Positions 1-527 of a stretch of DNA of 527 nt are shown in pieces. A model generated the notes under the pieces. The model was given only the letters and a program-made list of their open reading frames with translations, made no database searches and was not told the DNA's origin. Source of the stretch: Escherichia coli (GTDB lineage: Bacteria > Pseudomonadota > Gammaproteobacteria > Enterobacterales > Enterobacteriaceae); assembly GCF_003334335.1 (NCBI RefSeq), contig NZ_QOWQ01000175.1. One strand, 5' to 3'. Within the stretch, counting starts at the first letter, position 1. The number at the start of each line of letters is the position of its first letter. Made by a program: the position numbers and the translations under genes.

Positions 1-527
1 GAATTTATCCGTGAAGGTGTGGGCGTTCATGCGTTTAACGGCGAAATCTTTGTGCAGCCGGTCTGGGATACGGAGAGTACGCAACTGTTTCGTACGCGTT
101 TTAAAGCCGTGAGTCCGAAACGGGTGGACACGCCAGGACACGGTATCGGGAACCGTTTTCTGCGGGCCGGTGTGGAGGTTGATCGATATGGCCGTGCCGT
201 TGCGTACCATATCTGTGAGGATGATTTTCCTCGCTCCGGGAGTGGACGATGGGAACGGATCCCGCGTGAACTACCCACCGGGCGTCCGGCCATGCTGCAT
301 ATTTTCGAGCCGGTGGAGGACGGGCAGACCCGTGGAGCCAATCAGTTTTACAGCGTTATGGAACGGCTGAAGATGCTGGATTCCCTGCAGGCAACACAGC
401 TTCAGTCGGCCATAGTGAAGGCGATGTATGCAGCGACGATTGAAAGTGACCTTGATACCGAAAAGGCCTTTGAATATATCGCCGGTGCGCCGCAGGGGCA
501 GAAGGATAATCCGCTTATTAATATTCT
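1..527 (+). CDS. Phage portal protein, lambda (gpB) family; internal fragment, 5' and 3' ends both outside the window
   Basis: Seen in sequence: frame +1 is open across the whole window (175 codons, no stop), whereas the other frames give only short ORFs. By recall, the translation aligns colinearly and without gaps to the central region of bacteriophage lambda portal protein gpB. Near-identical blocks include REGV..HAFNGE.FVQ..WDT....LFRT.F..VSPKR, IPRELP.GR, and F.H.FEPVEDGQTRGAN.FYSVME..KMLD.LQ.TQLQSAIVKAMYAATIES.LDT. GC content is roughly 50-55 percent, compatible with an enterobacterial lambdoid phage. The track did not list this frame because it contains neither a start nor a stop codon in the window. 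Confidence 0.93.

Follow-up and report, generated by a model that had tools for sequence, protein, structure and literature searches.

The 527-nt window, the whole stretch of DNA analysed here, is an internal segment of a portal protein gene from a lambdoid prophage or phage of Escherichia coli of the phage 21 type, a reading to which we give a probability of about 97%. A single reading frame crosses the window without interruption, its translation belongs to the lambda portal family, identical copies supply the length and neighbourhood of the gene, and the differences among related copies record purifying selection in that same frame, frame +1. The gene is already known and is a textbook phage structural gene, so the sequence-only reading, which had described the biology as ordinary and the gene as a conserved phage structural gene, was right in this respect. 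While the full gene is known from identical or near-identical copies, the source copy itself was read over these 527 bases alone.

An open frame of the lambda portal family

Frame +1 of the plus strand contains 0 stops in 175 codons across the entire window, and it is the sole stop-free frame, as a six-frame count found 1 to 13 stops in each of the remaining five. When the window was subjected to mononucleotide shuffling, the frame was left open in 3 of 20,000 shuffles. The mechanical ORF list is limited to ORFs with both ends closed and omits those running off either end, and the real frame is missing from it for this reason. What the list does contain is an ORF of 104 aa on the minus strand (27-341) and one of 66 aa on the plus strand in frame +2 (170-370); a further ORF in frame +2 (11-112, 33 aa) falls under the default length cut-off. 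All three lie inside the frame +1 open frame, but are read in another frame or from the opposite strand. The sequence-only reading had claimed that frame +1 runs stop-free from end to end, that both listed ORFs are nested in it in the wrong frame or on the wrong strand, and that the real gene is absent from the ORF track; each of these statements holds.

The same reading had called for a search of the translation against portal families, and all of the references used gave a match. Against the NCBIfam equivalog model TIGR01539 (portal_lambda), the 175-aa translation scored 236.3 bits over model positions 104-270 of 457. The curated cut-off of this model, which is set for whole proteins, is 172.7 bits, and the fragment thus lies above it; the full-length protein of a 100%-identical copy scored 698.1 bits over positions 1-457 of 457, placing the product within the family. 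The frame +1 translation was also matched by Pfam PF05136 (Phage_portal_2; E 3.2e-38) and by PHROG 21 (portal protein; E 7.3e-61). Among solved structures, it matched residues 137-301 of the lambda portal protein B (gpB; PDB 8k38) with an E-value of 8e-64 and ∼62% identity over 161 aligned residues, and six further PDB entries of the lambda portal were matched as well. A much more distant similarity was found to PDB 8vhx chain D ('Portal', 560 aa), which covers window residues 3-160 with an E-value of 7e-21; this chain probably belongs to the same portal family at a greater distance. Residues 1-59 (window 1-177) additionally match positions 136-194 of the 195 positions of PHROG 3993, its C-terminal end, with an E-value of 9.6e-15. 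PHROG 3993 is labelled 'unknown function' and is probably a collection of portal gene calls that were truncated or split, as opposed to a separate protein.

The likeness to lambda gpB that had been proposed from the letters stands as far as the family is concerned; the nearest named relative, however, is the portal of phage 21 (gene 4, 95% nucleotide identity) and not gpB. Gene 4 of phage 21 (M81255, 'Bacteriophage 21 head gene operon'; OL657228) is 95.3% identical to the window over its entire length at the nucleotide level, and 5 of the 175 amino acids differ. Its length (1,593 nt) is the same, as is its position in the head operon, downstream of genes 1, 2, and 3. Relative to phage 21, the window is therefore best described as an allelic variant, and the exact allele is present in prophages of S88, APEC O1, ATCC 11775, and other E. 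coli strains. Lambda gpB (NP_040583; PDB 8k38; PMC10721106) shares the TIGR01539 and PF05136 family and the gene order, but only about 60% nucleotide identity with the window. At the protein level, gpB and the 530-aa product of the complete gene are 61% identical end to end and differ in length by little (533 versus 530 aa) with small gaps only, indicating that the two are collinear.

The complete gene and its relatives

In the 100%-identical copy of E. coli S88, the window corresponds to 6001-6527 of locus L002 and lies within an intact coding sequence of 1,593 nt and 530 codons (L002:5605-7197) annotated as 'phage portal protein' (WP_000831818.1). The window starts 396 nt into this coding sequence, a multiple of three, so that frame +1 is the frame of the gene. 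Mapped on the S88 copy, the window spans codons 133-308 of 530 and contains neither end of the gene. The portal coding sequence is 530 aa long in S88, PhiR12_1, phage 21, and six other copies. Extension beyond the window edges had been predicted to reveal a protein of 500-540 aa, and the 100%-identical copy, whose 530-aa product is read in frame with the window, bears this out.

When annotated neighbourhoods were compared, one order of head genes was common to S88 (L002), PhiR12_1 (L001), phage 21 (L003), and lambda (L006): terminase small subunit, terminase large subunit, gpW-like head-tail joining protein, portal, S49 peptidase (a protease-scaffold of the C/Nu3 type), D-like decoration protein, major capsid protein, and FI. 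The portal gene thus occupies the position expected in a lambda-type head operon: it lies downstream of the genes for the terminase subunits and the gpW-like adaptor, and upstream of those for the S49 protease/scaffold, the decoration protein, and the major capsid protein.

Matches to the window are common in the species. They were found in 1,862 of 5,426 complete E. coli genomes, about a third, and among the matches listed, every E. coli entry is annotated as 'phage portal protein'. The number of E. coli records with at least 99% identity to the window is 209, and at least 17 are exactly 100% identical, including S88, APEC O1, and the type strain ATCC 11775. Genomes that carry the portal gene hold a median of 2 copies and up to 5, and in seven places in the E. 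coli genome collection the match is plasmid-borne. Nineteen phage records also match. The closest are PhiR12_1, PhiR12_2, PhiR12_4, and PhiR12_5 at 99.4% nucleotide identity, followed by phage 21 at 95.3%, and all of the nineteen are annotated as portal save one unannotated fragment record and M81255. In M81255, the product of gene 4 (L003:2990-4582, the portal gene) is written 'head-tail preconnector gp5', identical to the text given for gene 5, which looks like a labelling slip of an old record.

The pattern of substitution was followed in nine related copies with at least 95% identity, which differ from the window at 0-27 positions. Codon position 3 of frame +1 holds 29 of the 37 variable sites, and the relatives show 0-6 amino-acid differences each, against 3-27 nucleotide differences. 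Given this excess at the third position and the few amino-acid changes, the substitution pattern marks frame +1 as translated and subject to purifying selection.

Unlikely readings: a decayed gene or an embedded short gene

Lambdoid prophages of E. coli are often defective, and this frequency is one point in favour of the view that the window comes from a portal gene that has decayed in a cryptic prophage and lost its function, with this part still open. Two carriers lend this view some substance. In the S88 prophage, both the lysozyme gene (L002:278-812) and the terminase large subunit gene that adjoins the portal gene (L002:3491-5418) are annotated as pseudogenes with frameshifts, and the genome of H64 (NZ_CP027587.1) retains merely a 36-nt remnant of the window sequence, at a point where the portal annotation abuts a gene for the tail assembly chaperone G. 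The latter suggests a scar of deletion or recombination. The frameshifts in S88 mean that some carriers of the portal gene are defective prophages, and the S88 prophage is itself probably defective despite its whole portal gene. The portal coding sequence of S88 is nevertheless intact at 530 aa, and the substitutions among copies are overwhelmingly synonymous. Furthermore, the induced phages PhiR12_1, PhiR12_2, PhiR12_4, and PhiR12_5, whose complete genomes were obtained with K-12 or E. coli C as host, carry the 99.4%-identical copy with 0 amino-acid differences in the window. We therefore consider decay of the gene unlikely.

Far less probable still, to the point of being negligible, is that the minus-strand ORF at 27-341 or the frame +2 ORF at 170-370 is a real gene embedded in the portal gene. 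Both stay open in all nine of the copies with at least 95% identity, and frame +2 is also open for ∼62 codons at the equivalent place in lambda (L006). However, neither listed ORF has a PHROG match at E≤1, and the search was equally empty for the third short ORF (11-112). No overlapping gene is annotated in any of the phage or RefSeq records examined, and no promoter-like sites were found on either strand of the window. For the frame +2 ORF, nearly every substitution alters an amino acid (10 of 11 and 12 of 13 in two comparisons), and the frame thus shows no constraint: in seven relatives, 5-13 nucleotide changes within 170-370 produce 5-12 amino-acid changes in frame +2 versus 0-2 in frame +1. 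The minus-strand ORF contains three internal stops in its lambda equivalent. Amino-acid changes in this ORF are as few among close relatives as in the portal frame, which resembles conservation but is expected, since the third codon positions of the two frames fall together. With neither a PHROG match nor an open lambda equivalent, the ORF at 27-341 was rejected as a gene, and the ORF at 170-370 was rejected for its lack of a PHROG match and its mostly amino-acid-changing substitutions. The frame +2 translations of window 170-370 and of the lambda equivalent are very different, though both are open, and conserved codon usage in the portal frame most likely accounts for the shared openness. The listed short ORFs are best read as by-products of other frames and of the opposite strand, with the portal gene in frame +1 as the gene of the window. 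Searches for other elements were negative as well: Rfam gave no match at E≤1 on either strand of the window, and neither direct or inverted repeats nor promoter-like or terminator-like sites were found in it.

Proposed domain organization and role in the phage head

The alignment to gpB is ungapped over window residues 2-166 at a constant offset (residue i of the window, i+135 of gpB), which allows the published domain boundaries of gpB to be carried over. These place the wing at residues 24-249 and 368-452, the stem at 250-279 and 343-367, the clip at 280-342, and the crown at 453-511 (PMC10721106). By homology, window positions 1-342 on the plus strand would encode the second half of the first wing segment (gpB 136-249), positions 343-432 the first stem helix (gpB 250-279), and positions 433-527 the start of the clip domain (gpB 280 to about 310). 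At the end of the wing part, the motif FEPVEDGQTRGAN (gpB 237-249) is highly conserved and stands directly before the stem helix, within which LQSAIVKAMYAATIES forms a second conserved stretch; in the alignment to gpB, the resulting wing-stem junction FEPVEDGQTRGAN...LQSAIVKAMYAATIES is the most conserved stretch. Given 62% identity to gpB and the domains defined in PMC10721106, the complete protein would be expected to adopt the canonical portal fold of wing, stem, clip, and crown and to assemble as a dodecameric ring.

Divergence from gpB is concentrated in the equivalent of gpB residues 176-222, after gpB residue 298, and in the C-terminal tail. The first of these shows the strongest divergence from lambda and includes the equivalent of the 208-218 loop, which in gpB contacts the capsid protein and has been reported to adapt to it (PMC10721106). 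The match to lambda fades beyond approximately window residue 165, at the position of a gpB surface loop (303-319) found disordered in the structure. This distribution of differences would fit co-variation of the portal with capsid and terminase partners of the phage 21 type.

In lambda, twelve gpB subunits make up the portal ring, which initiates head assembly, docks the terminase, forms the DNA channel, and is bound by the gpW-type adaptor. For gpB, the lambda record gives a leader peptide of 22 residues alongside the mature peptide; the N-terminal region falls outside the window. Homology with gpB and with phage 21 gene 4 points to the same dodecameric assembly and packaging role for the protein described here. 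By analogy with gpB, twelve copies of the 530-aa protein would form a ring at one vertex of the prohead, and this ring would nucleate head assembly. The terminase would dock on it, DNA would pass through it inward at packaging and outward at infection, and the gpW-like adaptor, the link between head and tail, would bind to it. To this ring, the segment encoded in the window would supply part of the wing, the first stem helix, and the start of the clip. For annotation, the window illustrates that a list of closed ORFs, when drawn up for a short stretch of DNA, omits the real gene and supplies spurious short ORFs in its stead.
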